Shown here: piece by piece, positions 17,326 to 37,999 of the stretch
Position numbering within the stretch: position 1 is the first letter of the stretch
Layout: each line of letters opens with the position of its first letter
Notes under the pieces: model-generated
Told to the model about the DNA's origin: nothing
The model's input: the letters and a program-made list of their open reading frames with translations, nothing else
Databases searched by the model: none
Program-made: the position numbers and the translations under genes
Assembly: GCA_018401615.1 (NCBI GenBank)
Contig: JAGYKN010000009.1
Span: 136 to 64,135 of the forward strand
DNA from: Burkholderiaceae bacterium
GTDB taxonomy: Bacteria > Pseudomonadota > Gammaproteobacteria > Burkholderiales > Burkholderiaceae_A
Length of the DNA stretch: 64,000 nt
Direction: 5' to 3'

Positions 17326-17973
17326 ATGTTTTCGATTTTTGGCTCTCAGTCTAAAAAACAACTCGAGCAGGCGAAATCCCACTTCGAGTACGCACGTGAC
17401 CTTCAGGGCGACAGCAAGGAATATCGTGCCGTGCGGGTGAGGGCAGCCATGCGATGCAAGCTTGTCCTCGATAAGATTTTCATCGAGGCTGCCCAGATGG
17501 AGGCAATGTTTCAGGAGGAGTCGATGATTGCGGCAGCAGCGGGTGAGGCTTCTCCGAAGAAGCTCGAAGAGACCGCAAAGGAATCCATCTGCTTTCAGGT
17601 CATCAAGTCTCTCAACGGACTTGTCATGGCCTATGTGCCGCAGCCCTACGCTGGTGAGATGGCCCAACTGGGCGTCCGATTTGAGACGGGATTGATCAAC
17701 ACTCGCCAGGCCATTGAACTGTCTCAGAAAATAGCGGATCGTCTGGCCGACGAACTCCAGATGGACCGCTATTTAATTCAGCCCATCGAGCCCCTGAGTT
17801 TCATGCGAGAGAGAATCGATGAATTCGATGCCATGCGTCGAGACCCTGAGGAGGCCTCCGAGGAGGTCGACAAGCGCCAAGACAAGGGCACAGCGGCAAA
17901 ACCACCGTCAGTCGAGAACGCTCCAAAAAAGAAAAAAGAGTCTGCCCCGCAGGACAGTCACTCCTGGGACTGA
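17326..17973 (+). CDS. Hypothetical protein, paralog of the genes at 37475-37999 and 36644-37399
   Basis: GGAG RBS; clear manual alignment to the ORF at 37475-37999. Confidence 0.8.
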   Translation: MFSIFGSQSKKQLEQAKSHFEYARDLQGDSKEYRAVRVRAAMRCKLVLDKIFIEAAQMEAMFQEESMIAAAAGEASPKKLEETAKESICFQVIKSLNGLVMAYVPQPYAGEMAQLGVRFETGLINTRQAIELSQKIADRLADELQMDRYLIQPIEPLSFMRERIDEFDAMRRDPEEASEEVDKRQDKGTAAKPPSVENAPKKKKESAPQDSHSWD

Positions 17974-18011
17974 TCAGGCACCAGCGGTGGCTGCTGCTTG
18001 CTCCGACCAGT

Positions 18012-18929
18012 CTATTCGCCCACACTTGTTGGGCCAATGCGGTGATCAAATAACCACTGCTTGAACGCCAGTGCTGCCGGAGACAAGCGCTTGCCGCTGG
18101 GATAGACCAGTTGCCAGCGGCGGATCAACGGAAATCCCACGACATCGAGTTTAACCAGCTCACCCAGGGCCAATTCAGAGACCACCGTGGTGGCGGACAG
18201 GACAGCCAGTCCAAGGCCACCGGCGACAGTCTGCTTAATGGCCTCGTTGCTGCTGACCTCAAGACGATTAATGGGACTAAAACCCTCCTGGGCAAAAAAC
18301 TTCTCGGTGGTCAGGCGCGTGCCAGAGCCAGGCTCACGCAGAATAAAGGGCTCATGACGCAACCGCTTGGCTGCAATGCGGCGCTGACCCACCAGGGGGT
18401 GGGAGGGCGGCGCAACCAAGACCAGCTGATTGTCAGCAAAGTGTTCGCTGATCACATCCAGATTGTCCGGCGGCTGTCCCATGATGTAGAGATCGTCTTG
18501 ATTGGCCATGAGACGCTGCAGGATGCTCTCGCGATTGACCACCACCATCGCAACCTCGATGCCCGGATGGGCCGCGCAGAATCCACCCAGCAGTTTTGGA
18601 ACGGTGTATTTCACCGTGGTGAGGATGGCAAGCCGAAGGGTGCCCCGCTCCATTCCCTGAAGGGCCGCTAGGTCCTCACTAAGAAGGTCCATGCGCTGGG
18701 AGATGTCATGGCAGGCTTCGGCCAGTGTTCGACCAGCCGCCGTGAGAAAGATCTTCTTGCCCAGCTGCTCGAACAGGGGCTGGCCAATGTTTTCAGCCAA
18801 CTGCTTGACCTGCAGCGACAGGGTGGGGGGTGCGAGATGCAACGCCTCTGCCGCCCGAGCAAAACTGTTGTGCTCAGCCACGGCCTGAAAGATGCGCAAT
18901 TGATGGAGCGTGGTGTGTCGAAGCTTCAT
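18012..18929 (-). CDS. cbbR: LysR-type regulator CbbR
   Basis: TLHQLRIF...SFARAAEALHL HTH, REPGSGTR, SNEAIKQ, all CbbR/CmpR-like; sits at the end of the cbb locus. Confidence 0.85.
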   Translation of the reverse strand: MKLRHTTLHQLRIFQAVAEHNSFARAAEALHLAPPTLSLQVKQLAENIGQPLFEQLGKKIFLTAAGRTLAEACHDISQRMDLLSEDLAALQGMERGTLRLAILTTVKYTVPKLLGGFCAAHPGIEVAMVVVNRESILQRLMANQDDLYIMGQPPDNLDVISEHFADNQLVLVAPPSHPLVGQRRIAAKRLRHEPFILREPGSGTRLTTEKFFAQEGFSPINRLEVSSNEAIKQTVAGGLGLAVLSATTVVSELALGELVKLDVVGFPLIRRWQLVYPSGKRLSPAALAFKQWLFDHRIGPTSVGE

Positions 18930-18980
18930 AAGATGATTCTATGTGGCGCTAGGCTGACACCAGACCTTAAATGGGAGGCC

Positions 18981-21215
18981 TCATTCGGCTGTGGACAGGG
19001 CCTCAGCCAGCTTGGCCAGTAACTGCGCGTGATGCTCGTCTTCAAGCTCGCGGCTCGGTGAGAAGGCCAGCAACACGCCGTGCCTGATCTCAATGTAGAG
19101 CGGGCCAGCCTGTCTGAGGGTCTCAAATATATGAGGCGGAACCTTAGGAACAGGACTGTCAGCTGGAACATAGAGCCGATAGCCGGGTGCCTCCTCGAGG
19201 TGAGCGCTCTCATTCAGGTTGACCAGATAGCGCTCTAGATAGTGACCTGGCGTGAGAACAAAATCAGGTAGCGTGACGCCGGCAGGCAACTCATGGATGA
19301 CGAGCGTGTGGCGGTGTGGCATGTGGTAATCGGGTGCCGACGTGTGGCTGTAATCGAACAATCGAATCTGCCCACCTGCCCAGGAGCCGTGAATCAGATT
19401 GCTCAGTTCACGGTGATCGCCGCGACGTAGGTAGACAAAATCATGCCGGTTGATGCTGGCGGCAACCTCAGGAGAGAACCCAAGCCCGAGGCGCTGAGCC
19501 AGGGAGGCCATCTGCTGCGCACGTCCGTCGCGTTCGGCAATCTGATGGGCAATGCGTGATTCCTGCATTCGGGCAGCCAGAGGGTGCGCAGAAAATGCAT
19601 AGAAGTGTTCCATGCCCTCTACGTTAAAAGCCCTGCCATGAGATGCTGCCTCTTCTTCGAAATGCTGCAAGAACTCAGCCGATGTGTGGTCGACAATCCG
19701 TGCAGACTCAGTAAACCGCAGGAGCACACCGTCTGACTCGGGCAATCGTTCCAAGGATTTTTGCAACGGCAGGAGATTAAAACCCACCAAGGACCCTAGG
19801 GTGAAGACATGGGTTGTGCGACCGTCATCGTCTTGTGATCGATGTTTAATGACTGGGTTACGAAATAGGCTTGCAAAGTTACCAGCCAATAGGCGAAAGG
19901 ATGATTGTGGGTCTATTCGCCCGTTTAGCACATACCGCACAGACGGCATGAGCAGATAGATGAGTAGGGCCAGCTCAATGGCCACACCAATGAACATGCC
20001 CCACAACAAGTCGGTGAGCAGAATGGCAACCACGGTGCTGGTAAACACCAGAAAACGATCTCTGCCCACGGCCAGCATGCGAATAAACAGCGCAGGCTCG
20101 CACAGCCGCCAGCCTATGTAGATGAGAATGCCCGCAATTGCAGCCAGCGGAATGAGCTTGAGCAGTTCAGGCAGCACAACAGCGAAGACCAATAAAAACA
20201 AACCGCTGTAGAGGTTTGACCACAGGGTGTGGGCACCGGAATCGATATTGGAGCGGCTTGGAACTGCATTGGGGATGACCGTCAGGCCGCCAATCATGCC
20301 CGACGTTAAGTTACAGACCCCCATGGCACGCAGCGTTTTATTGGCATCTGATTTTCGCCGCCATGGGTCTATCTTGTCGACTGCCTTGACGCTGGCCACT
20401 GATTCAACCGCATCAATCATGGTGAAGGTAAACACCACCAGTGCCATGGTGATCCAGAGTTCCGAATTGGAGAAAAATTGTGCAAAGGCAGGCAGGTGGA
20501 TGCCGTCGACGATATTTTCAGGCATGGCAATGCGCAGGCTGGCATCAAAACCCAACACGGTGCTGCTCAGAATGCCGAATGCGGCCACAACGATGGCTGC
20601 GGGAATCCAGCGCCATAGCCCACTGGCCTTGCGACGCAACGCAAACATCAGGCCGAGGCTGATCACGCCGACTGCGGCCACCTGCCACTGGGCCGATAGA
20701 AGCTGGCTGGGCAATATAGACAGTGAGTCCAGCACGGATCCCGACGGCACTGCAGGAGCCCCCAACCAAGCCGGGATCTGACGAACAATGATCATGATGC
20801 CGATTGATGCCAGCATGGCCTCAACGACCGTTGCGGGCAGCATGGTTGCATATTGCCCTGCACGAAGACCGCTCAAGAGGAGTTGGAAGGCCCCAGTCAG
20901 CACGATGGCCACCAGCACCAGGGGGTAGCCGACGGCAAGATCACCCTGACCAAGCAGCAGCATGCCCCACAGGAGGACAGGGGCAAGTGCTGCAGCAGGC
21001 CCACTGACCGTGACGTGCGAGCCCCCCAAGAACGGAGACAATAGGCCCGCCACAATTGCGGAAATTAATCCAGCAATGGCAGGTGCGCCAGATGCCAGCG
21101 CCACACCGAGCGAAAAAGGCGTCCAGAGCAACGCAACCTGTAATCCAGCCACCAGATCATGGCGCCAGTGCTTCAGGCCAGCAAGGCCACTCGAAGGCAT
21201 AGAGGGCAGGTTCAC
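18981..21215 (-). CDS. SulP/SLC26 anion (probably bicarbonate) transporter with STAS-like domain and an extra C-terminal domain
   Basis: DLVAGL...GVALASGAP...VSGPAA, multiple TM segments, IVDHT STAS motif; GTG start overlaps the upstream stop. Confidence 0.85.
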   Translation of the reverse strand: MNLPSMPSSGLAGLKHWRHDLVAGLQVALLWTPFSLGVALASGAPAIAGLISAIVAGLLSPFLGGSHVTVSGPAAALAPVLLWGMLLLGQGDLAVGYPLVLVAIVLTGAFQLLLSGLRAGQYATMLPATVVEAMLASIGIMIIVRQIPAWLGAPAVPSGSVLDSLSILPSQLLSAQWQVAAVGVISLGLMFALRRKASGLWRWIPAAIVVAAFGILSSTVLGFDASLRIAMPENIVDGIHLPAFAQFFSNSELWITMALVVFTFTMIDAVESVASVKAVDKIDPWRRKSDANKTLRAMGVCNLTSGMIGGLTVIPNAVPSRSNIDSGAHTLWSNLYSGLFLLVFAVVLPELLKLIPLAAIAGILIYIGWRLCEPALFIRMLAVGRDRFLVFTSTVVAILLTDLLWGMFIGVAIELALLIYLLMPSVRYVLNGRIDPQSSFRLLAGNFASLFRNPVIKHRSQDDDGRTTHVFTLGSLVGFNLLPLQKSLERLPESDGVLLRFTESARIVDHTSAEFLQHFEEEAASHGRAFNVEGMEHFYAFSAHPLAARMQESRIAHQIAERDGRAQQMASLAQRLGLGFSPEVAASINRHDFVYLRRGDHRELSNLIHGSWAGGQIRLFDYSHTSAPDYHMPHRHTLVIHELPAGVTLPDFVLTPGHYLERYLVNLNESAHLEEAPGYRLYVPADSPVPKVPPHIFETLRQAGPLYIEIRHGVLLAFSPSRELEDEHHAQLLAKLAEALSTAE

Positions 21216-22036
21216 TGTGCCCACTGCCGGAGGTAATGCTCAACCACCTCAACCACCGCCTTGGATTTGATCACCAACCCAAGGTCAATCATCTCTGAAC
21301 CCATGACCAGACCGTGATTGTTTGCCGGAACCGGTAAAGACACCAGATGATTTGCCTCCTCACGAAAAAAGACGGCCGCAACAACACCCACAAATAAGAA
21401 ATGTCGACCAGCACTCTGCCCAAATCGGTGCACATCGGGCAGGTACACAAAGACGGGGCTGCCGCTTGACCCAGGGTACACGGCCGCATCAATCAGAAAC
21501 TCGGCACGGCCTTCAAAGTCTAGCGCCATGGGGGTGGCTGTGGTGCCCCGACGTAATATGGGCATGAGGTTGACCTGATCCCAGACCCCGCTGGGATAGC
21601 CCACAAACAAGACCTCTTCTAATGCATCAAGTGCGCGGGTGGCTTCTTCGTTGGGCACGAGCCTTGTGTCGATCACCTGGTAGTAGAGCTCGACGCCCTG
21701 TTGATTGGCGGCCTGCTCAAGGGGTCGCATGGGAATGATGGCCAGATCAACCGCGGGATCAGGGTGCAGATACCAGGCCTGTGGAAAGTCATCGATATTG
21801 AGTTGAAACCGCTGGCCCAGCAGGGGCCGGCCATGGCGCTTCTGGGTAAAGACCAGACCCCCCCGGCGGACACCGTCAACGAGATGTCGGTTGGTCACGA
21901 TGAAGGTGTGAGTGCCGTGCGCATTGGCATGACTGACCACGAAGGCGGTGCCCGAGCCTTCGCTGCCGTCGTCAAGAACGGTGTCGACCCGAATGGTGTT
22001 AAAGAGCAGTCGTTTGGTGGTCGAGTTGATTTCCAC
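21212..22036 (-). CDS. Trypsin-like serine protease, no signal peptide
   Basis: GSGTAF, TNRH (His), DLAI (Asp), VGYP, PGSSGSP (Ser). Confidence 0.85.
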   Translation of the reverse strand: MEINSTTKRLLFNTIRVDTVLDDGSEGSGTAFVVSHANAHGTHTFIVTNRHLVDGVRRGGLVFTQKRHGRPLLGQRFQLNIDDFPQAWYLHPDPAVDLAIIPMRPLEQAANQQGVELYYQVIDTRLVPNEEATRALDALEEVLFVGYPSGVWDQVNLMPILRRGTTATPMALDFEGRAEFLIDAAVYPGSSGSPVFVYLPDVHRFGQSAGRHFLFVGVVAAVFFREEANHLVSLPVPANNHGLVMGSEMIDLGLVIKSKAVVEVVEHYLRQWAQ

Positions 22037-22041
22037 AGGGC

Positions 22042-22671
22042 TTAGTCTTGCCGGGCATGAAGATTGAGCTGCGCAATGGCGCGATGGGCTGCATGCATTG
22101 CGGCCTCAGCCTCGGCCTCGGTGCCCATCATGGTGAGCCGCCCAAAGCTGCCGAATGCCTTGACATCCACCAGCGTGACGTTGGCCGCCTTCTCCGCCTC
22201 ATTGGCTGCAAAGACAATGTATCCAGCAGGCTCTGTCTCGAGGATGAACATGCTCTTGCCAGGCAACAACATTGAGCCTTTTCGCATCTGCCGATTGATC
22301 AGCGTGGCATGGTCTGGGGTCACCGCGCAGATGACCTCGCTCCAGGCGATTCGACACGCCATACGATCACCCACGCTTGCGCCCAACTGCTCCAAGATGA
22401 TGCGGCTTGCCTCCTGGACCTCGCTCTGATTGCGATAGTGAATGCCCATGGAGCCGAATGCGCGCTCAACCACCTGTTCACCCATGCGAACGTTGGTTCG
22501 TTTGAGCGCAATATCAGACAGGCGGTGGACGGCCATGCCGGGTGAGACCTCGATCCAGACACAGGCGTCACCCGGGATGGGCAGGAAGCCCTGCGACGAC
22601 GTCGCCAGATACGAGGCCAACTGCGGCTGCAGAGAATCAATGAAGGAGAAGGTTCGTAGGCTAATGTCCAT
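22042..22671 (-). CDS. csoS1D: Tandem-BMC carboxysome shell protein CsoS1D
   Basis: [43 protein letters not shown]. Confidence 0.9.
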
Positions 22672-22679
22672 GGCTCATC

Positions 22680-25034
22680 TCACCGGGTCAGGCCCATGTA
22701 GAGCATGGGGAGCTTTTCGGGAAGACGTTCAACCTGATCGAGCACCGTAAAGTTCTTTGCGCCAAAGATACGCGAGACATATTGGTCTGCGTGTGGGTCC
22801 AGGCTGAGTGCATAGACCGTGATGCCATCACGCGTGAGCCCCTCAACGGCGCGTCTGGCATCAAAGCGCAGGTAATGAGGATCGCGGACATCGTTGTCAG
22901 CTGGCTCGCCATCTGTGATGACAAACATTATTTTTTTACGCTCTGGCCGCAGCTTAAAGGCTGACCCCGCGTGGCGCAGGGCCGCACCCATGCGTGTGGA
23001 AAAGGCGCCGCTCATGCCAGCGAGCCGAGCCTTGACCTGATCGTTGTAGGGCTGATCAAAATCCTTGAACCGGTAGTAATGCACGTCGTGTCTGCCGTCT
23101 GAAGAGAATCCATTGATGGCAAATGGGTCGCCAATCCGATCCAATGCACCAGACAACATGACTGTTGCTGCTCGTGATAGATCCATGATGCTGTATTCCT
23201 GACCACGGACCTTGTCATTTGACGACTCGGACATATCAAGCAAGACCATCACCGATAGATCGCGTTGATTGCGCTGATTGCGCATCATGATTCGGGTGTC
23301 GGGCTGCTGGCCCATTCGGATATCGATCATGGCCCGAACGGCTGCATTGATATCGAGCTCATCGCCATCTTCGACCCGACGAATGCGCTGCATGCCCTGC
23401 GGGATCATGGACTCGATCAGAAACTTCAGACGCGAAATGACCGGCTTATTGTCCTGCACGATCTTCTCGATGTCGGCCAGATCCCCCATGGGCGGGCGAC
23501 GCTCCAGCACGGTCACCCAGCTGGGTCGATCGAGCTGAATTTGATAATCCCACTCGCTGTATTGCACGGGGTCAGCGATCGGTTCACGCCCCTCAATGGA
23601 ATTGATGCTGATGCCTTCTTGGTCGAGGATGAATTCGGTTGGCAATACCCAGATCTCGTCGGCATTGTCACCAGCAAACTCGTTATTGGTCTCGTTGATC
23701 ATCTCCATGATGTTGACTTTTCGCCGAACCTGCTTGGGGGTCCATGTTGCCTCGAGCGCCTTGTCAATGTCGTAGGCATCAGATTCCCAGATCGTGCGAT
23801 TGTCGTCACGGTATCTCGCACGCAGGCCGTCTGTTTTGGGGTTGAAATCTGGTAACGCCAACTGATCCAAGCCCTGCGATAGCGCAAGGCCAATCTTCAG
23901 ACTGATCTGATTGCTTGTGAGGTCACTCTCATCTGAGAACAACGCGACGCCGTCACGCACCCAGGGATGCAGGTCGGTGGACTGCGGGTCGAGCAAGGCT
24001 CGTGCAAGCCGGTTCAGGAGATCGCCCACCGTTACGGGTTCGTGGGCATCCGGTGATGGATGGAATGCCAGCCAGGCGGCACGCATATTTGGAAATTGGC
24101 GGCAGGCCAGGGTCTCGACGCGGGCATCTTCGATCACCTCAATGATGGCCTTCTGTGTGGTGGTGAGGGCCTGCAGTGACAAGGGCGCCTGGGTGAAGAC
24201 CAGGTGCGCAGCGCAATGGTTCACCACCGCACGATAGACCTCTGGGCCCAGGATTGGCTCCAACTCATTGGGGTTGTCGGCCTGCGGCCGATAATCGTCA
24301 TAGGCGTCTGGAATGTAGATGACATAGCGTTCGATGTAAGGCTTCAGACCATCGCGGTTTTCATAGTCACCAGAGGTTGGGCGCAGGAAGAAATCGCGGC
24401 CCCAGATTGCCCGAAGATAGATGTTGAGTCGTCTCTGGACATCAACAAAAAGCGTGCCCTTGCGCTCCTGCTGCAGCACCTGCAGAGCATCAGGGCTCTG
24501 GAGCCCAAAGTAGCGCACCTGGCCTTCAAGATCATCCTTATAGGCCTGTGCACCCCACATCACCCACCGACGTAGGCCCCCGAGTGTGAGCTGAGAGAGC
24601 AGTGGTTCGATATTTTCCAACATGGGTCGCAGGCCCCGTGGCGCCTGTGTCAGCACGAGCGAGAGCACATTTAGAAAACGGCGAAACAGCTCCTCATCGG
24701 CCAGGCGATCTGCAGCCTTGGGTGCCGCGCTGACGATGAGGGTGAGCATCGAGCCTGATGCCTTAGAGGCCATGCCCAGGATGAAATTCACCACCTCTGG
24801 CAGGACATCTTCCCCGATTGCATTTGCAACGGCGGGCATGCACTCAATGTAGCTCGTCACCAGTGATTGATCTCGGCCAAGCTGATTCAGGGCAATTGCA
24901 CCCTTGATGTAGTTATCCATTCCCCTAGACGAGAAGGCACGAGAGGCCTCTGTCCAGCCAGCGGCAAGCGTGGCCTGGGCCTCGCTCGGTAGGTCGGTCA
25001 GCAGCTCTTGGTAATCGTCGAGATAAATTGCCAT
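22680..25034 (-). CDS. cbbO: Rubisco activase adaptor CbbO (VWA domain)
   Basis: LTLGGLRRW, YSEWDYQ, MIDAS DMSES, STRMGAALRHAG, TDGEP. Confidence 0.93.
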   Translation of the reverse strand: MAIYLDDYQELLTDLPSEAQATLAAGWTEASRAFSSRGMDNYIKGAIALNQLGRDQSLVTSYIECMPAVANAIGEDVLPEVVNFILGMASKASGSMLTLIVSAAPKAADRLADEELFRRFLNVLSLVLTQAPRGLRPMLENIEPLLSQLTLGGLRRWVMWGAQAYKDDLEGQVRYFGLQSPDALQVLQQERKGTLFVDVQRRLNIYLRAIWGRDFFLRPTSGDYENRDGLKPYIERYVIYIPDAYDDYRPQADNPNELEPILGPEVYRAVVNHCAAHLVFTQAPLSLQALTTTQKAIIEVIEDARVETLACRQFPNMRAAWLAFHPSPDAHEPVTVGDLLNRLARALLDPQSTDLHPWVRDGVALFSDESDLTSNQISLKIGLALSQGLDQLALPDFNPKTDGLRARYRDDNRTIWESDAYDIDKALEATWTPKQVRRKVNIMEMINETNNEFAGDNADEIWVLPTEFILDQEGISINSIEGREPIADPVQYSEWDYQIQLDRPSWVTVLERRPPMGDLADIEKIVQDNKPVISRLKFLIESMIPQGMQRIRRVEDGDELDINAAVRAMIDIRMGQQPDTRIMMRNQRNQRDLSVMVLLDMSESSNDKVRGQEYSIMDLSRAATVMLSGALDRIGDPFAINGFSSDGRHDVHYYRFKDFDQPYNDQVKARLAGMSGAFSTRMGAALRHAGSAFKLRPERKKIMFVITDGEPADNDVRDPHYLRFDARRAVEGLTRDGITVYALSLDPHADQYVSRIFGAKNFTVLDQVERLPEKLPMLYMGLTR

Positions 25035-25092
25035 GGTCGATCGGTGTGTTGTCACCAGGCCAAGCCGCCTGGAAGGCCAAGCCTTCTATGTC

Positions 25093-26130
25093 TTAGAAAT
25101 AGGTGCTAGCAGCGGAATCGAGTGCATCTCGCATGTCGGGGTCGTCGGTGATGGGGCGAACCAGCGCCACACGGCAGGCCGACAGGGCCGGCACGCCCTG
25201 CGCAATCAGAGAGCCGGCATAGATGAGCATGCGGGTGGACAGACCCTCATCAAGGCCATGGCCTTTGAGATTGCGCGCCCGTTCCCCAATATGAACGAGT
25301 TTTTGTGCGGTCTCTAGATCAACGCCTGACTCATGGGCCACGATTTCGGCCTCGGTGTCGTGCTCTGGATAACTAAAATCGAGCGCACCAAAACGTTGTT
25401 TTGTGGATTGCTTTAAATCCTTCATCAATGACTGATAGCCGGGGTTGTACGAGATGACAATCTGGAAATCGGGGTGGGCATGCAACAACTCACCTTTTTT
25501 CTCAAGCGGCAACACACGTCTTGCATCTGTGAGCGGGTGAATCACCACGGTGGTGTCTTGCCTTGCCTCAACGACCTCGTCGAGATAGCAGATGGCACCA
25601 TATCGGGCGGCCAGCGCAAGAGGGCCGTCTTGCCAACGCGTGCCGCTGGCATCGAGCAGAAACCTGCCCACCAGGTCGGAGGCCGTCATGTCTTCGTTAC
25701 AGGCCACGGTGATCAAGGGCCTATTGAGCCTCCAGGCCATGTACTCCACAAAACGGGTTTTGCCACAACCCGTTGGGCCCTTCAGCATCATGGGCATGCG
25801 CACCGAATAGGCTGCCTCGTAGAGCGTGACCTCGTCAGAGACCGTTCGGTAGTAGGGCTCCTCTTGAACGCGGTAGGGCCCAAGAATCTCATCGGCCGTG
25901 ATGCTCGAAGCCTGGGAGGTGCCCCATCCACTGCCTGCCTGCGATGCGAGGTCCGTGCGCACTGAGGAGGCCAGAGCACCAGAGGGGGCCAAAACGCCGG
26001 AGGAGGCCAGCGCACCAACGGAGGCCGTCTCGGGCTGTCGGATTGGGCCAACGGTTGGCCTGGCCTGCGAACTGCGTTCAGCAGCAGGCCTGCGGAGAGA
26101 ATAAATTTGGCGCGAGGAATCGTTGGACAT
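25093..26130 (-). CDS. cbbQ: Rubisco activase AAA+ ATPase CbbQ with N-terminal extension
   Basis: KGPTGCGKTRF, YLDEVVEARQD, SYNPGYQ, KQSTKQRF, STRMLIYA. Confidence 0.95.
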   Translation of the reverse strand: MSNDSSRQIYSLRRPAAERSSQARPTVGPIRQPETASVGALASSGVLAPSGALASSVRTDLASQAGSGWGTSQASSITADEILGPYRVQEEPYYRTVSDEVTLYEAAYSVRMPMMLKGPTGCGKTRFVEYMAWRLNRPLITVACNEDMTASDLVGRFLLDASGTRWQDGPLALAARYGAICYLDEVVEARQDTTVVIHPLTDARRVLPLEKKGELLHAHPDFQIVISYNPGYQSLMKDLKQSTKQRFGALDFSYPEHDTEAEIVAHESGVDLETAQKLVHIGERARNLKGHGLDEGLSTRMLIYAGSLIAQGVPALSACRVALVRPITDDPDMRDALDSAASTYF

Positions 26131-26167
26131 GAATCAGCCTGGGAATGAGCAATCAGTCAATGAGCAA

Positions 26168-26419
26168 TCAGTCGGGCCAGATGCGATCGGGAAATGCAAA
26201 GCCACCCCCACCAGATGCTTGGGCTGCGGAAGGTTGCATGGCCTTTGCCTTCGAACCAGCAGCCTTGGGTGTCGTCTCTGAGGCCACGGGGCGTGACGCA
26301 GCATCTCTGCCCTGCGGCTTGGCGGCGTTCGGCTTGGCGGCGGTCGGTGTGGCCGCGGCTGGTGTGGCGAGCTTAGATTGCCGAACACTTGCCGAGAGTT
26401 TGTCTTTTATGTTGGTCAT
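26168..26419 (-). CDS. mcdB: Carboxysome positioning protein McdB (alpha type)
   Basis: Small and disordered, basic N-terminal helix, C-terminal RIWPD; directly after the ParA-like gene. Confidence 0.85.
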   Translation of the reverse strand: MTNIKDKLSASVRQSKLATPAAATPTAAKPNAAKPQGRDAASRPVASETTPKAAGSKAKAMQPSAAQASGGGGFAFPDRIWPD

Positions 26420-27051
26420 TTTCCAAAGGCCTCCTGAATGATGGCGTTGATGTCTGCGGCCGCCGGTGCCCCCCGCCTGCCCATCTGAAAGACCGACACG
26501 CCATCTAAGGCGGCGGTTCGAAATGCGGCCCGTCGCCGAATCGTTGAGGCAAGCAGGGGCAGTCCACAGTCTGTTAGCGCCTCATTCATGGCCGATGAGA
26601 TGGCGCTTTTCGGTTCAAGCTGATTGAGCACCAAAAATGCACGGAGGTTTGGCCGCAACTTTCGGGCCTCTTCGATCTCTTGCAAGAGGCGCAGACTTGC
26701 CCAGAGATCGACTGGAGAAGGCAGTATTGGAATCAGGGCGATATCGCAGGCGCGCAGTGCCTGGGCGGTGGAGTTGCTCTCCAATGAGGGCGGACAATCC
26801 AAGACCACATGGTCAAAGGCCCGAAAGCTCTGGCGTATGCCCTGCGCGTCCCATCTGGATTGAATCTGCTTGACTGCCACAGGAAACGGGGCTGTGCCCT
26901 GACTGGCCCACTGGACGGAGGACGCCTGAGGGTCAAGATCGATGACCACGGTTGGTCCATGCTGCGCCAGACCTGCGGCCAGGTTCATTGAGAGCGTTGT
27001 TTTCCCCGCCCCACCCTTTTGATTGATCACCGCTGTGAAGCAGGCGGGCAT
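26416..27051 (-). CDS. mcdA: ParA/MinD-family ATPase McdA
   Basis: NQKGGAGKTT, DLDPQ, DCPP; carboxysome context. Confidence 0.87.
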   Translation of the reverse strand: MPACFTAVINQKGGAGKTTLSMNLAAGLAQHGPTVVIDLDPQASSVQWASQGTAPFPVAVKQIQSRWDAQGIRQSFRAFDHVVLDCPPSLESNSTAQALRACDIALIPILPSPVDLWASLRLLQEIEEARKLRPNLRAFLVLNQLEPKSAISSAMNEALTDCGLPLLASTIRRRAAFRTAALDGVSVFQMGRRGAPAAADINAIIQEAFGK

Positions 27052-27052
27052 G

Positions 27053-27743: not shown

Positions 27744-27777
27744 TGCGACAGACGCTAAGCAGCAATCGCTTCACAGA

Positions 27778-28116: not shown

Positions 28117-28192
28117 TTACCGCTCCTTTGTTAAAAAAATAAAAAAGTCATGCTCTGCTGCCTTGATGCGTCCGGGGCCCACATCAACCCCA

Positions 28193-28304: not shown

Positions 28305-28347
28305 AAATGCACCGTCGTCTGCTTCTTTGCGCGCCTCAACTCCCTCG

Positions 28348-28853: not shown

Positions 28854-28880
28854 GTCGTTTTACCTTGTCATCTGGTCGCG

Positions 28881-30368
28881 TTAATGCCAAATCACCGGGG
28901 CAGCGTCATCGATCAGGGTGCAGCGTTCGCTTGCGTGTATGTCGCTCACGGCCATCTGGCAGTGCAACAGCCCCTGGGTGTGGAGTGCGGCGTAGCGAGA
29001 CTCAATGGCAGTCTTGACGCGAAGGCAACGATTGACGGCCCGCTCGCGTGCACCGGGAACCCGTGCTGAGAAATGAAAATGCACCAGAAGTGGAATGGCC
29101 AACCCACGGCTAATATTTAGGCCCTTGAAAATATTGATGCCGACATCCATGTCAGCAGTGCCCTCTTCAACGGTGTCAAGGTGAGCGAAGTAAAACTTGT
29201 TGCGCAGCTGGACCTCGCTCAGTGCCTCGCCAACACAGATGAATCGCTCCTTGTGGCCAATGTCGGTGTATCGGCCCTCGTGGTGTTGGATCACATATTG
29301 AATCTGCGAGAGATTGGCCTGCAGCAGTCGTTCAACGAGCCGCCGCATGCCGGGCCGAAGGCCTGAGCCCCCATCGGCCATGTCGACTGCACGCGAGATG
29401 GCGGCAGAGGCGGCCTGCTCATCTAGGCTGAGTGTGTCGCGAAAGACCTGAGCGCTCTCAACATATCGGCCAGGGCAGTTCATTGAATCGCCATTCGGGA
29501 TGTGCACACGGATGGCATCGGTGTCGGTGTCCATGCCAATCAGCAGTGTCTCGGGTGCTGCCCCACTGCCAAAGGTGTTGTCAATTGCAGCCCGCAATTC
29601 ATCTAGCTTTGCAGCAGCTGCCATGGTGGCTTTGTCGTCTTGAGAGCCGTGGGCTGCACAGCCCTGGTGGCTGGGATTGGACGTGCTGAAGTGGTAGACC
29701 GCTATCTTCAAATAGTTGCCGTCCTCGCCGCCGGATATGGTGCCATTGAGCCGTTCGAGTTCCCGGCGTGTCCAGTCGGCAACGTCGGCCTCAACATCAA
29801 AGAGCGCTCCCGCATAGGCCTTCACAGAGATGGCCTCAGACGGGGCGATCCGCAATACAAATGGGACGAGCCCCTGCAGGCGGCCGTCTGCGCAGGGGCT
29901 GATGTCGACTGTGTGATAGCCACAAGATTGAAGGAATTGGCGGTCGATGATCATCCGAGCAAGCCAGGGTGCCTGGTCCATTGCTGCACATTCAACACAG
30001 GTCTTGAAGGTTCGAAAAATACAAAATGAATGAAGTGCCCGCATGTCGAGTCCGACGACCCATGCGTCTTGGAGGAGCTTCTCAGGCAGCCTGTAGCCCA
30101 GCCGAGTCTGGGAGAGCTGCTGGGCTCGGGCAACAAAGGCAGTCTCGTGCTGCATGGTCGAGACCGCCATGAGCACGTCTGTAATGGGCGCAAAACGATT
30201 GCGGATCTGGCATTCGTAGTCAAAGAGCTGGTGATTGAGTTCCTGATCCACCAGCGAGTGCGCGCACCTCTGATTCGGGCCCAACACACAGGCTGGGTTA
30301 TCGAGGTACTGCGGTGGCTGGAGCCCCGCGGCTGCTCGCATGGCGACAAGGCGTTTGCGTGTGTTCAC
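28881..30368 (-). CDS. csoS3: Carboxysomal carbonic anhydrase CsoSCA
   Basis: PCADGRL, YHFS, GCAAHGS zinc ligands; DTDTDAIRVH. Confidence 0.94.
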   Translation of the reverse strand: MNTRKRLVAMRAAAGLQPPQYLDNPACVLGPNQRCAHSLVDQELNHQLFDYECQIRNRFAPITDVLMAVSTMQHETAFVARAQQLSQTRLGYRLPEKLLQDAWVVGLDMRALHSFCIFRTFKTCVECAAMDQAPWLARMIIDRQFLQSCGYHTVDISPCADGRLQGLVPFVLRIAPSEAISVKAYAGALFDVEADVADWTRRELERLNGTISGGEDGNYLKIAVYHFSTSNPSHQGCAAHGSQDDKATMAAAAKLDELRAAIDNTFGSGAAPETLLIGMDTDTDAIRVHIPNGDSMNCPGRYVESAQVFRDTLSLDEQAASAAISRAVDMADGGSGLRPGMRRLVERLLQANLSQIQYVIQHHEGRYTDIGHKERFICVGEALSEVQLRNKFYFAHLDTVEEGTADMDVGINIFKGLNISRGLAIPLLVHFHFSARVPGARERAVNRCLRVKTAIESRYAALHTQGLLHCQMAVSDIHASERCTLIDDAAPVIWH

Positions 30369-30380
30369 CCGGTGGTCTCT

Positions 30381-31979
30381 CTAGCCTCGTGCGCCGCCCG
30401 ACACCGTCACCGCAGCACCTTTGCTGGTGCTGCCCGAGGAACCCGTGATTCGGCTCTCAGGCGGGGCTGCACGCTCGACGTCACGAAACTGCTGGGCATT
30501 CATCACCACCCCCCGTGGCTCCCCACGTTGCGATGGATTTCGCATCAGAGATGAGGTGCCTTCGGTTCCCGTGACACGCCCAGATGACTGCCATGCGTCA
30601 CCGCTGATCTGGGTGCCAGCCTGGCTCCCCTCACCGGTGAGACGTTCGGCCGCAGTTGTGGCAGACACCTGAGAGGCGGCCTGAGATTTGGCCTGAAAGG
30701 ATGAGGGCTCGTGATGACGAAATTCGGGTGTTCCCGTGATCAATCCGCCTGCCTTGTTCACAGGCCCAGTGATGCGTTGTGTGCTGAAGTTCGTGCCCGT
30801 GATGGCGTCAGCAGAGTTGCGCTCTCTGGCCTGCATCGAGGGCGACTTGATGCTGAAGTCTGCGGGCGCAGGAGCAGCTGGCGGCGCGTCCTGGCCACCT
30901 GCCCTGGGCACAAAGCGGCTGCTGGTCTGACAATTCAATGGCCGGTTGTCAAGACCGATATAGGGCGATCCCGTGATGAGCTCGCAGGCACCGCGATCAT
31001 CTCCAGTCATGACAGAACCACCGGCACCGGGTCGATCGCCGGTGACAACTGCCGCCGCAATGACGCCTTCGCTTCGCAGGCGCGTCTGCTGGGCAGCAAG
31101 CTGCGGATCGTTGCAGAACTCCTTGTACTGCTTGCGGCCAATGTAGGGTGTTCCACTGATCGGCGCGCAACCACCGGGCTCATCGCCCGTCATCTTGTTC
31201 GATCGTCCGACATGGGTGCCGGTAATGGACTGGCCACGCCAGGTCTGGTCCTGTGCCAATGATGCTGGTGTTTTGGGGCCGCCCGAGTGCTGCCTGGCGG
31301 CGTTGACATCACCAACATTGGTGTATTGGGTTCCCGTGAGCTGACGCGAGGAACCGAATTCATCACCAGTAACGGCTGTAGAGCGCTCAACGTCGGATCG
31401 CACAGGATTCTTTTCGTCCTGCGATGGCATGACGCTGACCCTTCGGGGTGCGGCAGATGGCGCGCGGTTTTCGCGGGCCAGATCCAGGTGGGATGAGAGA
31501 AATTCTGTTCCAGTGATGGTGCGCTCAGAGCCTGCCTGGGTGCCTGTGACCTTGTGGGCCGCATTGACAACCTGGGCACCTGCGAGGGCTCTTGCGCCAG
31601 ATGGCGCCGCATGTTGTGAGGTGGATGCGGGCACCGATGCCGCCGGCGTTCGCATGCGGCCGCTGGGCTTGGCGGCTGCGGCTGGGCCTCCTGTGCGGCC
31701 CTTGAGCGCGCGCGCCGTTCGGCGTTGCATGGCAATCTGCCGACCCGATGAGGCGGATTGGGCCTGTGCGGCCTGCATGAGCGCAGCCTCTGATGCCGCC
31801 CTTGATGGCACCGGCTCTGAGGCTTCGGCCCGATACACGGGCTGTGATGCTCGCCGGGGTGCCTGACTCGACTTCACAGAGGCGGCCTTGCCATGGAGCG
31901 CCATGGCCTTTCGGCGCATGAGCGCGAGTTCTCGTCCAGACAGTGTCACTTGATCTGCGGTTGCGTTGGCTGTTGCCAT
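30381..31979 (-). CDS. csoS2: Carboxysome scaffold CsoS2 (short, 532 aa)
   Basis: Two N-repeats (SGRxxAxxRRxA), [VI]TG triplet M-repeats, C-terminal ITGSSG...VTVSGGARG. Confidence 0.93.
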   Translation of the reverse strand: MATANATADQVTLSGRELALMRRKAMALHGKAASVKSSQAPRRASQPVYRAEASEPVPSRAASEAALMQAAQAQSASSGRQIAMQRRTARALKGRTGGPAAAAKPSGRMRTPAASVPASTSQHAAPSGARALAGAQVVNAAHKVTGTQAGSERTITGTEFLSSHLDLARENRAPSAAPRRVSVMPSQDEKNPVRSDVERSTAVTGDEFGSSRQLTGTQYTNVGDVNAARQHSGGPKTPASLAQDQTWRGQSITGTHVGRSNKMTGDEPGGCAPISGTPYIGRKQYKEFCNDPQLAAQQTRLRSEGVIAAAVVTGDRPGAGGSVMTGDDRGACELITGSPYIGLDNRPLNCQTSSRFVPRAGGQDAPPAAPAPADFSIKSPSMQARERNSADAITGTNFSTQRITGPVNKAGGLITGTPEFRHHEPSSFQAKSQAASQVSATTAAERLTGEGSQAGTQISGDAWQSSGRVTGTEGTSSLMRNPSQRGEPRGVVMNAQQFRDVERAAPPESRITGSSGSTSKGAAVTVSGGARG

Positions 31980-32008
31980 CTCTTGCCTCTTAATTTAGCG
32001 ATAGACCA

Positions 32009-32335
32009 TTAGCGATAGACCACAAAGGCCATTCCTTGGCTCTGTGAGTAGTTGTCGTAGGCGAGGTAGCGCACCAGGTGAGATGGGAACTCACGATGGC
32101 AGGCATCGAGTTCCGCCATGACGGCATCAACCGACTCTTCGCCAAAAAGCGGCAGCTTCCACATGAACCAGAAGTTGCTGGTTGCTGCTGTGCCCTTTGC
32201 CGTGTGTTCCACGGCTGGATTCCAGCCCTGCGCAATTGAGTAGGCGATCTGGCGACGGACCTGTTCGATCGTCATGGGTGGCAGATAAGAGAAGGTCTCA
32301 AACTTCTGGGACGACTTGTAGGCTTGAACGGCCAT
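32009..32335 (-). CDS. cbbS: Rubisco small subunit (form IA, carboxysomal)
   Basis: [35 protein letters not shown]. Confidence 0.97.
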
Positions 32336-32368
32336 GTCAGTTTCCTTTCAAAGAGATGGTTAGATGGA

Positions 32369-33790
32369 TCACTTGTTTGAGAGGTCGAGTTTGTCGACCG
32401 TGTCGAATTCAAACTTAATCTCTTTCCAGACCTCCATGGCAATCTTGAGCTCAGGACTGTGTGCAGCAGCGGCCGTTAGGATTTCACGGCTCTCTCTCTC
32501 GAGCTGGCGTCCCTCGTTGCGAGCCTGGACGCAGGCCTCCAAGGCCACCCGGTTCGCATGGGCGCCCGCAGCATTTCCCCATGGGTGACCAAGGGTTCCG
32601 CCGCCAAACTGCAGCACGGAATCGTCGCCAAAGATGTTGACCAGTGCAGGCATGTGCCAGACGTGAATGCCGCCCGAGGCCACCGCAAAGACACCAGGCA
32701 TGGAGCCCCAGTCTTGATCAAAGAAGATGCCGCGTGACCGATCTTCGGGAATGAAGGACTCGCGAAGCAGATCGATCCACCCCAGTGTTGAGGCACGGTC
32801 GCCCTCGAGTTTTCCAACCACGGTTCCCGTGTGGAGGTGATCGCCGCCTGAGAGGCGAAGAATCTTGGCAAGGACACGGAAGTGGATACCGTGGTGCGGA
32901 TTTCTGTCGATCACTGCGTGCATGGCACGGTGGATGTGCAGCAGCATGCCGTTGTCACGACACCAATTGGCCAGGCCCGTGTTGGCACAGAAGCCGCCTG
33001 TGATGTAGTCATGCATGATGATTGGCGCGCCGATTTCCTTGGCATACTCGGCCCGCTTGTACATCTCTTCGGGCGTTGCAGCGGTCACGTTCAGGTAGTG
33101 GCCCTTGCGCTCGCCAGTCTCTTGCTCGGCCTGCAATGTGGCCTCTTGAACGAAATCAAAACGTTGACGCCAGCGCATGAACGGTTGGCTATTGATGTTT
33201 TCGTCGTCTTTGGTGAAATCAAGGCCACCGCGCAGGCACTCATAGACCGCGCGGCCATAATTCTTACCGGACAGGCCCAGCTTGGGCTTGATGGTGCAGC
33301 CCAGGAGCGGACGGCCGTATTTGTTCATGAGGTCGCGCTCAACCTGAATGCCGTGGGGTGGACCACCGCAGGTCTTGACGTACGCAATTGGGAAGCGCAC
33401 GTCTTCTAGCCGAAGGGCGCGAACGGCCTTAAAGCCAAATACATTGCCCACCAATGAGGTGAACACATTGACCACTGAGCCCTCTTCGAAGAGGTCGATC
33501 GGATACGCCACAAAGGCATAAAAGCAGCTCTCGTCGCCGGGCACGTCTTCAATCCGATAGGCGCGGCCCTTGTAATAGTCCATGTCGGTCAACAGGTCAG
33601 TCCAGACCGTGGTCCATGTGCCGGTTGAGGACTCTGCAGCAACAGCAGCGGCGGCCTCTTCGTGATCCACCCCAGATTGGGGGGTGATCTTAAAGACCGC
33701 CAAAATATCGGTGTCCAGCGGGGTGTAGTCGGGCATCCAGTAGGTCTGGCGATAGTCCTTTACACCGGCGTTATACGTTTTTGTGGCCAT
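32369..33790 (-). CDS. cbbL: Rubisco large subunit form IA
   Basis: [37 protein letters not shown]. Confidence 0.99.
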
Positions 33791-33897
33791 GCAGCGCGCT
33801 CCTTTTCGGGTGGTCGATATCCTCTAGCCCACGCTTAACACTTCCACTGAAGGGGTATTTCGCTGTGAACCTGAGGCCATTGTGCCAAATTCCAGAT

Positions 33898-33939
33898 TTA
33901 ATTAAAGTAAAATGATGTGACGGTTATCATTTACTTAAA
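33898..33939. promoter_or_regulatory. AT-rich putative CbbR operator upstream of cbbL
   Basis: Overlapping TNA-N7-TNA boxes (TTA-attaaag-TAA-aatgatg-TGA) and an imperfect inverted repeat aagtaaaatgat...atcatttactt. Confidence 0.6.
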
Positions 33940-34036
33940 TAAATGATCAAGCACCAAGACACCACCGCGCTCTGGGTCGAACGCAAGCAAGATGCAGGTG
34001 TTTACAGCCGCTTTGTCAGCTGCTTGCTCTGCCCTC

Positions 34037-35632: not shown

Positions 35633-35736
35633 GGGATCCTATTTTGTGGGCCAAGAGGGATCTTAATGCCGCCTAAGTTACCTCAGGATTGCCCTCGCAT
35701 CGCAAACCCCCGCCCACCCGTGTCAAACTCAATGGC

Positions 35737-36132
35737 ATGGATGACCTCAAAAAAGCGATCATGATCGTCGGGAGCATCGTTGGCGTGGGTGCTTTTGGCG
35801 TTTTTTTGTACATGATGCTCGCCGACGTCGGGCCGCCGCGACCCATTGAGGTTGTCGTCACGCTCGACAACAAGTGTGAACTCGTCGACGACGCCTTCAT
35901 GGTGCGGGTCATGCCAGATGGGCCAACGGCCCTCTTCGAGGGCAAGACCGCCAGGGTCATGGCCAAGAAGAATCAGCGGGTAAAGCTGGTGGCCAATGCC
36001 CGTTACCCGGGATTTGATTTCGAGGGCGACGAAGACAACGCCGCCCCCCGCATCACGCTTGTGGCCATCTGCGACTCGACTGGCCGTTTCGATGCCACCT
36101 CAAGCAACATGAAAAAGCAGTTCGGCAAATAG
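35737..36132 (+). CDS. Hypothetical single-TM protein
   Basis: Hydrophobic N-terminal segment, then a beta-rich domain with two Cys. Confidence 0.65.
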   Translation: MDDLKKAIMIVGSIVGVGAFGVFLYMMLADVGPPRPIEVVVTLDNKCELVDDAFMVRVMPDGPTALFEGKTARVMAKKNQRVKLVANARYPGFDFEGDEDNAAPRITLVAICDSTGRFDATSSNMKKQFGK

Positions 36133-36151: not shown

Positions 36152-36574
36152 CTAGGAGGCGAGCCGGACGGCGGTGGGTCGGTTGTTGAGCATGCCTGGA
36201 ATGGTGCCCCAGGCGCTTTGAATCTCCGAGATCAGGCTGGTGACCTCTGCAAGGGCTTCGAGGTCGTTGTGCAGATTCACATGCAGGAGGCGGCGGGTCA
36301 CATAGCCATAGAGTTCGTCGAGGTTACGGGCGATTTCGCCGCCGGCATCAAAGTCCAGTGCGCCCTGAAGGCCCAGCACAATCTTGCTTGCTCGGCTCAG
36401 GCTCTTGGACTTCTCCTCGATGGCGCCACGTCGGATCTGACCCTCGGCGGACTTCAGGCTCTCCATCAACCCGTCAAAGAGCATCTGAATGAGTTGAACG
36501 CTGTCTGCAGTGGCCACGCCAGTGGTGACTTTCACATCACCGTAGCTCTCAATCGCTTTTCTCATCTGCCGCAT
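36152..36574 (-). CDS. fliS: Flagellin chaperone FliS
   Basis: QLIQMLFDG, LQGALDFDAGGEIARNLDELYGY, EIQSAW. Confidence 0.93.
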   Translation of the reverse strand: MRQMRKAIESYGDVKVTTGVATADSVQLIQMLFDGLMESLKSAEGQIRRGAIEEKSKSLSRASKIVLGLQGALDFDAGGEIARNLDELYGYVTRRLLHVNLHNDLEALAEVTSLISEIQSAWGTIPGMLNNRPTAVRLAS

Positions 36575-36643
36575 TTTGGAGTCCTCGTTTTCGTTTCACT
36601 CGGTGGGGGCGCTTTCGCGTCCAACACTGAGGGAATCGGTCGA

Positions 36644-37399
36644 TCAGGCCGAGGCTTTAGCGGGAAGTTGCATTTCGCTGCCTGCCGGGGTCGGCTGGCC
36701 TTCCAGGGCAAGGGCAGGCGGGTCGCCCATCTCCAGGGCCTGGCCCGGCAGGTTGATCAGGCGCTTGGCCCAGGCCCCGCCCTTGGCATCCACGCCGGTG
36801 CGCTGAAAGAGGACATCACAGACCTCCTCGAGTCCTTTGCGCACAGACTCCAGGTTTTTCTCGGTGACGGTGGCGCTGTCGAACCCCGCCTGGTAGATGG
36901 CGTCGGCGTGTTGTTGGGGTATCCAAGAGCTCACGACGCCTCTTAAGCCTTTGATCTTTCGGCGATTTGAGGCGATCTTGGAGGAGCCCTCCTTGCCGTG
37001 TTCGGCGCCCTCGGCCACGAGCTCCTGAATGTGCTTGGTGAGAATCACGCCGTATCGAAGCTTGAGTTCCTCGATTTTTTCGGGCTCGACCCCCTCGACT
37101 GGCTTGCCGGTCATGCCGTCCCAGAGGCGCTTGCCCTGAAGCGTGCCAAAGCTGGCGTCGGCCTTGTCTTCTTGCATGACCTGTGAGTCGGCCTGAGCCT
37201 CTGCTTTTTCATCGACTGGTGCCGCCTCACCGTCTGGCCCAGTGAGTGCCAGCGAGAATTCATCGCGCAGTGCGTCCTCACTTGGCATGGGAGGAACCAC
37301 CGCCTGGTGGACGGCCCGAACATGGTCAACCACCATGAGCATGAGCACCATCACCACAGCGAGCAAGACGAGAATTGAGAATAAAAGAACCGTGTTCAT
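36644..37399 (-). CDS. Hypothetical membrane-anchored protein sharing a domain with the neighbouring ORF
   Basis: N-terminal TM; KLRYG-x12-EGAE and IKGLRGVVSSWIPQQHA motifs. Confidence 0.75.
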   Translation of the reverse strand: MNTVLLFSILVLLAVVMVLMLMVVDHVRAVHQAVVPPMPSEDALRDEFSLALTGPDGEAAPVDEKAEAQADSQVMQEDKADASFGTLQGKRLWDGMTGKPVEGVEPEKIEELKLRYGVILTKHIQELVAEGAEHGKEGSSKIASNRRKIKGLRGVVSSWIPQQHADAIYQAGFDSATVTEKNLESVRKGLEEVCDVLFQRTGVDAKGGAWAKRLINLPGQALEMGDPPALALEGQPTPAGSEMQLPAKASA

Positions 37400-37426
37400 A
37401 TCGAGCCCCTAAAACCAGTCCAGAGG

Positions 37427-37453
37427 AAATCGACCCAGCGGCAGGCTTCTTGA
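37427..37453 (-). promoter_or_regulatory. Putative sigma-28 promoter
   Basis: TCAAG-N14-GTCGATTT upstream of the 36644-37399 gene and fliS. Confidence 0.55.
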
Positions 37454-37474
37454 GGCTAAGCCAGAGGCCCTGCC

Positions 37475-37999
37475 TTACTTGTTGGCCCCATTGTCGTCGT
37501 CCTGGTCTGCCTCGTCACCATCCTCTTCGGCGAGCTGCTCCTTGAGAAAGCCCAGGGCTTCGAAAGGCTGGTCGAGGTCGAGCGCCTCTGAGATTTTGTC
37601 AGCCACGGCCTGACAGAGTTCAATGGCCTGTTCTGGCGATGCCTCTTCAAGTTGGAAGGCAGCGCCAACCTTGAAGATTTCCTCGGCGTACTCAAGCGGA
37701 AGGTAGGCGAGGATCTCGCCGTTGACGGACTTGATCGATTGGAAGGCCCTGGGCGAGGGCGCCTTTGGCTTTTCCTCGTCGTTGGCCACGGCGAGCATCG
37801 AGGCCTCTGCATGCTCTGCGGTGCGTTCAGCCCCTTCTATGAAGGTCTTGTCGAGCACGGCCCGGCATCGCAGGCCCATGCGCAGCTTCATGGAGCGGGT
37901 CTCGCGAGAGTCGTCCTTGGCATTGATGGCGGCCTCGAATTCCTGCTTGGCCTTGACCATCTGCTCTTTATCGGCGTTACCGAAAAGCTTTCCCAGCAC
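37475..37999 (-). CDS. Hypothetical protein downstream of fliA (paralog family)
   Basis: GAGAGGG RBS before GTG 37999; aligns with 17326-17973. Confidence 0.8.
   Translation of the reverse strand: MLGKLFGNADKEQMVKAKQEFEAAINAKDDSRETRSMKLRMGLRCRAVLDKTFIEGAERTAEHAEASMLAVANDEEKPKAPSPRAFQSIKSVNGEILAYLPLEYAEEIFKVGAAFQLEEASPEQAIELCQAVADKISEALDLDQPFEALGFLKEQLAEEDGDEADQDDDNGANK

Follow-up and report, generated by a model that had tools for sequence, protein, structure and literature searches.

The stretch of DNA analysed here, called the window, comprises 64,000 nucleotides of contig JAGYKN010000009.1 (positions 136 to 64,135, forward strand) from a Burkholderiaceae bacterium. It contains three genes, A, B and C, whose products are, by the sequence comparisons given below, one protein family. 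B and C lie in a flagellar gene cluster directly after fliA, and A lies outside it. The family marks a distinct, horizontally spread and mostly chemoreceptor-free flagellar system, and B and C apparently represent a real, conserved and undescribed protein family. As to function, we tentatively favor, with a probability of about 0.4, that C, together with B, replaces FipA as the membrane partner of FlhF. The three copies are:

17326-17973, plus strand: A, accessory paralogue (A subfamily), 215 amino acids, not part of the flagellar cluster, close to the left edge of a putative tRNA-adjacent insertion
37475-37999, minus strand: B, core copy, 174 amino acids, directly after fliA, with an N-terminal hydrophobic Phe motif, a predicted helical domain with one beta-hairpin, and an acidic tail
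36644-37399, minus strand: C, membrane-anchored remote paralogue, 251 amino acids, with a single helix predicted to be N-out/C-in, a flexible linker and the same core domain

All three open reading frames (ORFs) are present with the aligned blocks quoted for them in an initial annotation of the window. B begins with a GTG behind a GAGGG ribosome site, 35 nucleotides past the fliA stop. A and B are 40% identical over 161 amino acids (E 4e-38), and C is related to them weakly in pairwise comparison (E 3e-5 with B, 6e-4 with A). The outcome of comparing B and C as profiles depends on the alignments used: family-level alignments of closer relatives gave probabilities of 72%, 82%, 2% (untrimmed) and 15%, and trimmed profiles that include marine members gave 96% in hhalign (E 4e-9, 99 columns, score 55.7). 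Column shuffling reduced this score to 11.7±2.3, with a maximum of 18.4 (n=100), and the register of the alignment is gapless in the first block, as initially proposed. In searches against 14,792 decoy ORFs, the B profile scored 27 of 27 C cores, and the C profile 41 of 46 B-type proteins, above the best decoy; the window's own C was found at E 1.3e-4 with the B profile and its B at 1.5e-5 with the C profile. C thus aligns significantly with B by profiles, well above shuffles and decoys, and the two are real homologues. The distance given initially for the third copy, about 19 kb, also holds, the end of A being 18.7 kb from C and 19.5 kb from B. No fourth copy was found in the window's genome, the assembly of which is 86% complete.

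That the three ORFs could not be assigned to a known family is borne out by database searches, none of which gave a match above background or placed them in a characterised family. Pfam has no match for A, B or C, no family below E 0.02 for 63 B-family members, and none for five marine C proteins. The C members found only weak rows in NCBIfam (E≥0.014), and sequences in the PDB gave no family match (best E 0.054 and 0.5). There was no usable match in the ESM Atlas for two B proteins, and nothing in Foldseek at E≤0.001. A structure search with B (VIA-align) reached Z 4.8 at best (root-mean-square deviation 5.0, 92 residues aligned), with no chain at Z≥5 among 48,161; with the full-length model of C the best Z was 4.4, most rows being taken by the transmembrane (TM) helix, which makes this a weak search. 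In these searches no solved structure matched the modelled fold above background, although a missing match is no proof of a new fold. Neither a receiver nor a PilZ domain was detected by profile in the 63 B-family members or in a set of 28 proteins. Where B matches carry annotated names, these are "hypothetical protein", and two C matches carry unrelated automatic labels. We found no description of the B/C pair or of its flagellar clade in the largely open-access literature searched, where hypothetical proteins are hard to find by words.

The flagellar genes that surround B and C in the window are:

36152-36574, minus strand: fliS
38035-38745, minus strand: fliA (sigma-28)
38742-39557, minus strand: flhG
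39568-40854, minus strand: flhF, with GTPase motifs present
40851-42962, minus strand: flhA, the marker of the flagellar clade

Homology to fliA runs up to 38742, yet the stretch opens with no ATG, GTG or TTG; a CTG overlapping the flhG stop (38745-38743) may serve as start.

The B family is rare and patchy. In 1.84 billion clusters (50%), the B profile matches 174 representatives at E≤0.001 and 106 at 1e-10, and the named members include marine Porticoccaceae and other Gammaproteobacteria. The order yields matches in 7 of 401 genomes, the phylum in 4 of 401 (one of them weak and partial), the class in 2 of 400 (of which one is a fragment containing stops) and the order of the marine carrier G601 in 10 of 301. 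Within the same genus, B-family matches are present in 19 of 25 genomes and C in 18. C is present in 36 of the 37 B-positive genomes tested; the remaining one, G189, has fliA-B-fliS and no C match in the genome.

Among 44 loci chosen by the C profile, some of which repeat same-genus genomes, B adjoins C in all, with B-C inverted in one, and the order is flhA-flhF-flhG-fliA-B-C-fliS wherever the contig allows. Their titles name UBA2463-like Burkholderiaceae, Limnohabitans, Hydrogenophaga, Rubrivivax and Comamonadaceae, and the Limnohabitans carriers with RefSeq genomes are T6-20, Rim28, Rim47, 15K, WS1 and 2KL-51. Loci chosen by B, a less biased set, include ten marine flagellar loci, and in all ten B directly follows fliA, as it does in the window and in every intact locus. 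C follows B in seven of these ten, and in the other three it lies elsewhere, behind another flagellar membrane gene without a Pfam match. No fliS match adjoins B or C in the ten. The initial placement of the pair inside a fliA-fliS operon therefore stands for the fliA-B link, which is constant, and not for fliS, which is not. The homologues are accordingly linked to flagellar genes, and the proposal of an undescribed flagellum-associated module agrees with this tight linkage and with the lack of a family match. Two same-genus genomes (L017 and L018) have B and C inverted relative to fliA, and G022 (83% complete) has a family match without a FlhA match. Codon differences are more often synonymous than amino-acid-changing in all three genes (59 vs 24 in B, 81 vs 37 in C, and 86 vs 50 in A, the last against G024). 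Among the contigs of four metatranscriptomes, those of related strains in one lake run span 30 of 30 bins, which is not counted as proof of expression because these are contigs and DNA carry-over is possible. Two other flagellar-cluster genes without a Pfam match (50185-51483 and 52502-53533, both plus strand) are conserved beside B/C in marine carriers. The product of the second resembles a membrane coiled-coil protein, and in three marine genomes this gene is found ahead of C. G601 has an FlhF (L118:8113-8913) devoid of GTPase motifs alongside intact flhG, fliA, B and C.

A search for co-occurrence by profile, as had been suggested for the family, indicates that it tracks one type of flagellum as judged by FlhA. 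When 80 chosen genomes, which include known positives and are not a random sample, are ranked by FlhA score, all at 866 bits or more are B-positive except G014, whose contig ends inside flhF, and none at 806 bits or less has a B match. In a FastTree phylogeny of 73 FlhA rows, 38 B-carrying rows and G014, which has a truncated locus and was assigned to the B group, share one branch with 100% support, against 34 B-negative rows. IQ-TREE on a subset of 33 rows (18 vs 15) agrees with a single B-carrying clade. This clade joins marine gammaproteobacteria with freshwater Burkholderiales (UBA2463-like and Limnohabitans), and it lies among the FlhA of the marine order, apart from ordinary Burkholderiales FlhA, those of four same-genus genomes included. 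A single clade for all Burkholderiales FlhA, a grouping named by taxonomy after the first tree had been seen, is rejected on the 33-row subset (approximately unbiased test, p-AU 1.9e-6, LG+G4). Because the freshwater rows nest inside the marine ones (82-99% support, midpoint root), a marine donor of the freshwater system is likely. Nine of the 37 B-positive genomes have chemoreceptors over the cut-off, none of them among the 10 marine genomes, compared with 24 of 29 B-negative genomes that are flagellated, and CheW was not found in G000, G010 and G021 (three of the five tested).

Within the genus, four genomes with another FlhA type (G006, G007, G015 and G020) have no B match. G006, G007 and G020, with G047 and G353, carry a second, long-branch FlhA type that is 44-46% identical to the window's and occurs in the same family; these genomes have no chemoreceptor, B or C matches. 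With G015, there seem to be three flagellar types in one genus.

Structure prediction gives B and C a common domain in two different settings. The relevant segments of C are:

37328-37384, minus strand: predicted TM helix, residues 6-24, mean hydropathy 3.3, with a Lys/Arg (K/R) bias
36752-37150, minus strand: predicted folded cytoplasmic domain, about residues 84-216, homologous to B residues 30-143

The N-terminal TM helix assigned to C at the outset is thus supported, one hydrophobic helix being predicted. The N-out orientation is predicted from the distribution of K/R residues: in 74 of 75 C-family rows, some of them duplicates, more of these residues follow the helix than precede it. C is laid out as a short N-terminus, one TM, a helical extension, a low-confidence linker, the folded domain and a low-complexity tail. 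In the AlphaFold model the domain is confident (confidence score, pLDDT, 94-98 over residues 81-210) and has helices 89-96 and 106-137, strands 146-150 and 155-159, and helices 162-177, 180-201 and 207-214. The model of B (pLDDT 94) has helices 2-26 and 32-72, strands 86-91 and 94-99, and helices 102-116, 122-139 and 150-157. By secondary structure the element order is the same in both: helix, long helix, beta-hairpin, helix, helix, short helix. B has no predicted TM helix, its highest 19-residue hydropathy being 1.3, in keeping with the soluble partner first envisaged. It may not be simply soluble, however, since a short hydrophobic Phe motif at the N-terminus, present in 59 of 63 B-family members, can be read as a membrane-binding helix. 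Invariant or near-invariant residues of B are R38, R40, R46, D50, K51, F53, P101 and Q116, and R38, R40, R46 and K51 give it a conserved basic face, in addition to the acidic tail.

C and fliS, but not B, are each preceded by a sigma-28-like site:

37429-37454, minus strand: putative sigma-28-like promoter of C, CTCAAG-N14-GTCGAT, 55 nucleotides before the gene, with a score of 19.9 that ties for second place in the genome scan
36635-36660, minus strand: second sigma-28-like site, before fliS, score 17.2

The sigma-28-like site initially proposed for C is thus present. In 17 of 17 same-genus loci these two hexamers lie ahead of C, separated by a spacer of varying length, which suggests that the site acts as a promoter. 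The pattern used is a genus pattern written after these upstream regions had been viewed, and is relaxed relative to the enteric consensus; the strict enteric consensus finds nothing in the window and 1 of 27 C upstream regions at two mismatches. A weak site precedes flgM (score 12.3). The regions ahead of A, B and the other extra copies have none, their best scores staying below 7. Beyond the one genus, C often begins within a few dozen nucleotides of the B stop.

The extra copies are found beside a variety of genes. In G000, G024 and two marine genomes, those of A type come after a HemD-like gene, in one of the marine genomes near motAB and fliS. In G001, G017 and G019 they directly follow a homologue of the window's ORF 35689-36132 (plus strand), near genes with cyclic nucleotide (cNMP) domains. 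In the window this is a small unassigned ORF with a hydrophobic N-terminus, convergent on fliS. Monophyly of the A-type copies across fresh and marine hosts has only 78% support. D-type copies mostly follow a GGDEF-domain gene, and Limnohabitans sp. Rim47 has its extra copy between cheA/cheW and flaG/flagellin. Within the genus, five chemoreceptor-bearing genomes have one family match and most chemoreceptor-free ones have two. A rule that chemoreceptor-bearing genomes have a single copy was dropped, as Rim47 has receptors and a second copy.

FipA is described as a TM protein with a DUF2802 domain (PF10975) in Vibrio, Pseudomonas and Shewanella, which binds FlhF, requires its TM and is reported to be highly conserved among users of FlhF/FlhG (PMC11620751). 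DUF2802 and C appear to exclude each other. DUF2802 scores over the cut-off in none of 36 C-positive genomes and in 1 of 37 B-positive genomes, namely G189, the one without C. By comparison, 9 of 11 B-negative genomes from the order of the marine members have it, as do 3 of 9 B-negative genomes of Burkholderiales. The search had working positive controls, 13 other genomes being over the cut-off; several genomes in the absence counts are incomplete, including the window's. In G1176, the B-negative genome with the next-best FlhA score, flhA-flhF-flhG-fliA is directly followed by a TM and DUF2802 gene, which thus occupies the same slot after fliA. G1176 is sister to the B clade with 88% support in FastTree but only 51% in IQ-TREE. 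Since it keeps the DUF2802 gene together with one chemoreceptor match, FipA need not vanish with the che operon. The C-terminal motif of HubP/FimV was not found in G000, G010 and G409 (three of the four B-positive genomes tested).

The replacement of FipA by C is our leading reading because of the same slot, the same predicted topology, the retained FlhF and FlhG, and the mutual exclusion with DUF2802. Like FipA, C has, by prediction, a short N-terminus, one TM, a helical extension and a cytoplasmic domain, and it is encoded with flhF and flhG, even if three marine genomes keep it away from B. Unlike FipA, it has no DUF2802 or profile similarity, its domain is about 130 amino acids with a beta-hairpin, and it has a TM-less paralogue. 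The family is thus not FipA, and it may work like FipA by analogy. B and C would then be dedicated accessory proteins of one distinct FlhF/FlhG-type flagellar system. C would be a single-pass inner-membrane anchor; its cytoplasmic domain would retain FlhF at the membrane, and basal-body assembly would thereby begin at the pole. B would present the same domain, with a predicted membrane-binding N-terminus in place of the TM helix, and could serve as partner or co-adaptor of C. A and the other extra copies would be dispensable duplicates moved beside other genes. If C replaces FipA, a non-homologous replacement has occurred in a positioning pathway reported as highly conserved. B and C may bear on how cells without FipA and mostly without chemoreceptors place or steer their flagellum. 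Such cells, which retain FlhF/FlhG, are very common among the bacteria of lakes and coasts, and for their flagellum the pair offers a clean marker and a candidate for a missing part. The named Limnohabitans carriers may make the question testable in culture, and the confidently modelled domain (pLDDT 94) without a solved-fold match is a structure target.

Several observations weigh against this proposal. C is unlike a DUF2802 protein even by profile (hhalign 0.2%), and its contact with FlhF is suggested by analogy. The exclusion of DUF2802 and C amounts to very few independent events, one clade and G189, as kin are not independent; moreover, the DUF2802 gene of G189 adjoins a separate fliS-fliT-like cluster, and 2 of the 11 B-negative controls from the marine order also lack DUF2802. 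FipA acts at initiation, but the sigma-28-like promoter before C suggests that C is expressed late. Some marine genomes that carry B and C have a degenerate FlhF, which in G601 is 267 amino acids long and has no P-loop, and G1192 has a FimV-type motif. The extra copies beside GGDEF, cheA/cheW and cNMP-domain genes or motAB would fit motor signalling better than polar placement. Finally, other flagellar-cluster genes, including the second membrane protein (52502-53533), could equally fill the role of FipA.

An alternative is that B and C control the motor (its switching, braking or speed) in a flagellum without CheY-based chemotaxis. B would bind the C-ring or the stator, C would tether B, and the extra copies would couple the motor to cyclic di-GMP (c-di-GMP), cNMP or re-acquired Che proteins. 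We consider this rather unlikely. CheY and YcgR/FlgZ are motor effectors. In five control loci (L127, L128, L129, L134 and L145) cheY is found in the position behind fliA that B takes here, and the GGDEF neighbors of some extra copies, with a GPDEF motif, suggest a possible c-di-GMP link as for YcgR/FlgZ. The scarcity of chemoreceptors and CheW, the Rim47 and motAB neighborhoods and a sigma-28-like promoter, compatible with a late motor function, point the same way. However, B and C have no receiver, PilZ or other sensory domain and a predicted fold that is helical with a single hairpin, B is retained in all nine chemoreceptor-bearing genomes, and no GGDEF match was found in G000 and G601. Five B-negative flagellated genomes also lack chemoreceptors, so that loss of chemotaxis does not require B, and the conserved FliM N-terminus is also explained by FlhG-FliM binding as described in PMC11620751. 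A broader picture would allow either role: a new flagellar type moved from marine gammaproteobacteria to freshwater Burkholderiales, largely without chemoreceptors and FipA, with a new-fold C and B module as pole anchor or motor switch and duplicated B copies as plug-in links to c-di-GMP, cNMP or chemosensory inputs. Taken whole, this picture is possible and somewhat doubtful.

It is unlikely that B modulates sigma-28, as a co-anti-sigma factor, chaperone or FliA activator, with C, made under sigma-28, sequestering B at the membrane as feedback. Of all the links, that between the adjacent fliA and B is the most constant, and it persists where C has moved or been lost. B lies behind fliA in the same orientation and has no sigma-28-like site of its own, whereas C has one, and the basic face and acidic tail of B would suit such a role. 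Yet FlgM is present, B and C are inverted relative to fliA in L017 and L018, and the site before C is established in one genus only, C elsewhere often lying just past the B stop. Quite unlikely, in our view, is a role at the export gate like that of SwrB, or in helping FliS to deliver flagellin at the filament stage. The swrB gene is located after sigD, and we know of no soluble paralogue of SwrB. SwrB of Bacillus subtilis is described as a monotopic flagellar accessory protein that activates the export apparatus via FliP (PMC4526659), and C is monotopic by prediction; in addition, C and fliS are neighbors in freshwater loci, and a sigma-28-like site precedes each of them. Nevertheless, no fliS match adjoins C in marine loci, SwrB belongs to a Firmicute peritrichous system, and C, which was not aligned to SwrB directly, has no Pfam or NCBIfam match. 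FlgV, described as a small membrane protein conserved at the flhF-flhG/sigma-28 junction, is a positional analogue only: it is reported to have two TM helices, with an Arg inside the membrane, and to end in a disordered tail (PMC11607428), in contrast to the one TM and confidently folded domain of C, and the B/C family is not FlgV or any library family tested. It is improbable that B and C are passengers that travel with the flagellar operon and act elsewhere. The extra copies outside flagellar clusters and the G022 match without FlhA would allow it, but the match to one FlhA clade across orders, the excess of synonymous codon differences in B, C and A, and the promoter before C argue otherwise.

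The initial annotation had also remarked that A and B/C bracket the carboxysome genes of the window. This looks incidental, since A lies inside a tRNA-adjacent block missing in a relative. In G010 (99% complete), rpoD, tRNA(CAT) and gltS are contiguous, without the 17.6 kb that in the window holds a frameshifted HemD-like gene, A, cbbR and carboxysome genes, and no carboxysome carbonic anhydrase was found in the G010 genome. The block has a lower G+C content (0.55-0.59 vs 0.60-0.61). With the site empty in G010 and the G+C lower, A is best read as cargo of an insertion, or else the block was lost from G010. A link between carboxysome and flagellar module was rejected on this evidence. The carbonic anhydrase gene of G024 and its A copy lie on separate contigs, and A is located at the end of one. 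The gene before A is:

16493-17284, plus strand: HemD-like gene, frameshifted in the window, intact before the A copy in G024 and two marine genomes

The frameshift reflects either a pseudogene or assembly indels. Homologues of the HemD-like gene are found at L037:8488-9300 and in L121 and L122, with tandem pairs in some genomes, and among 47 genomes searched strong matches (E<1e-19) are confined to B-positive genomes of the genus and of one marine family. The block, about 16460-34030, carries A, cbbR, a SulP-type gene, CbbO/CbbQ-like genes, alpha-carboxysome genes and RuBisCO. A degenerate copy of tRNA(CAT), missed by ARAGORN, lies directly before it at 16387-16455, and a long repeat stretch rich in Ala, Lys and Pro (13868-14400, plus strand) lies in frame ahead of rpoD. 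Elsewhere in the window, 56220-59247 contains a sigma-54 activator gene with LPP20-type and weakly FlgT-like genes. Such genes are typical of gammaproteobacterial polar flagella, and here they are found in a Burkholderiales genome.

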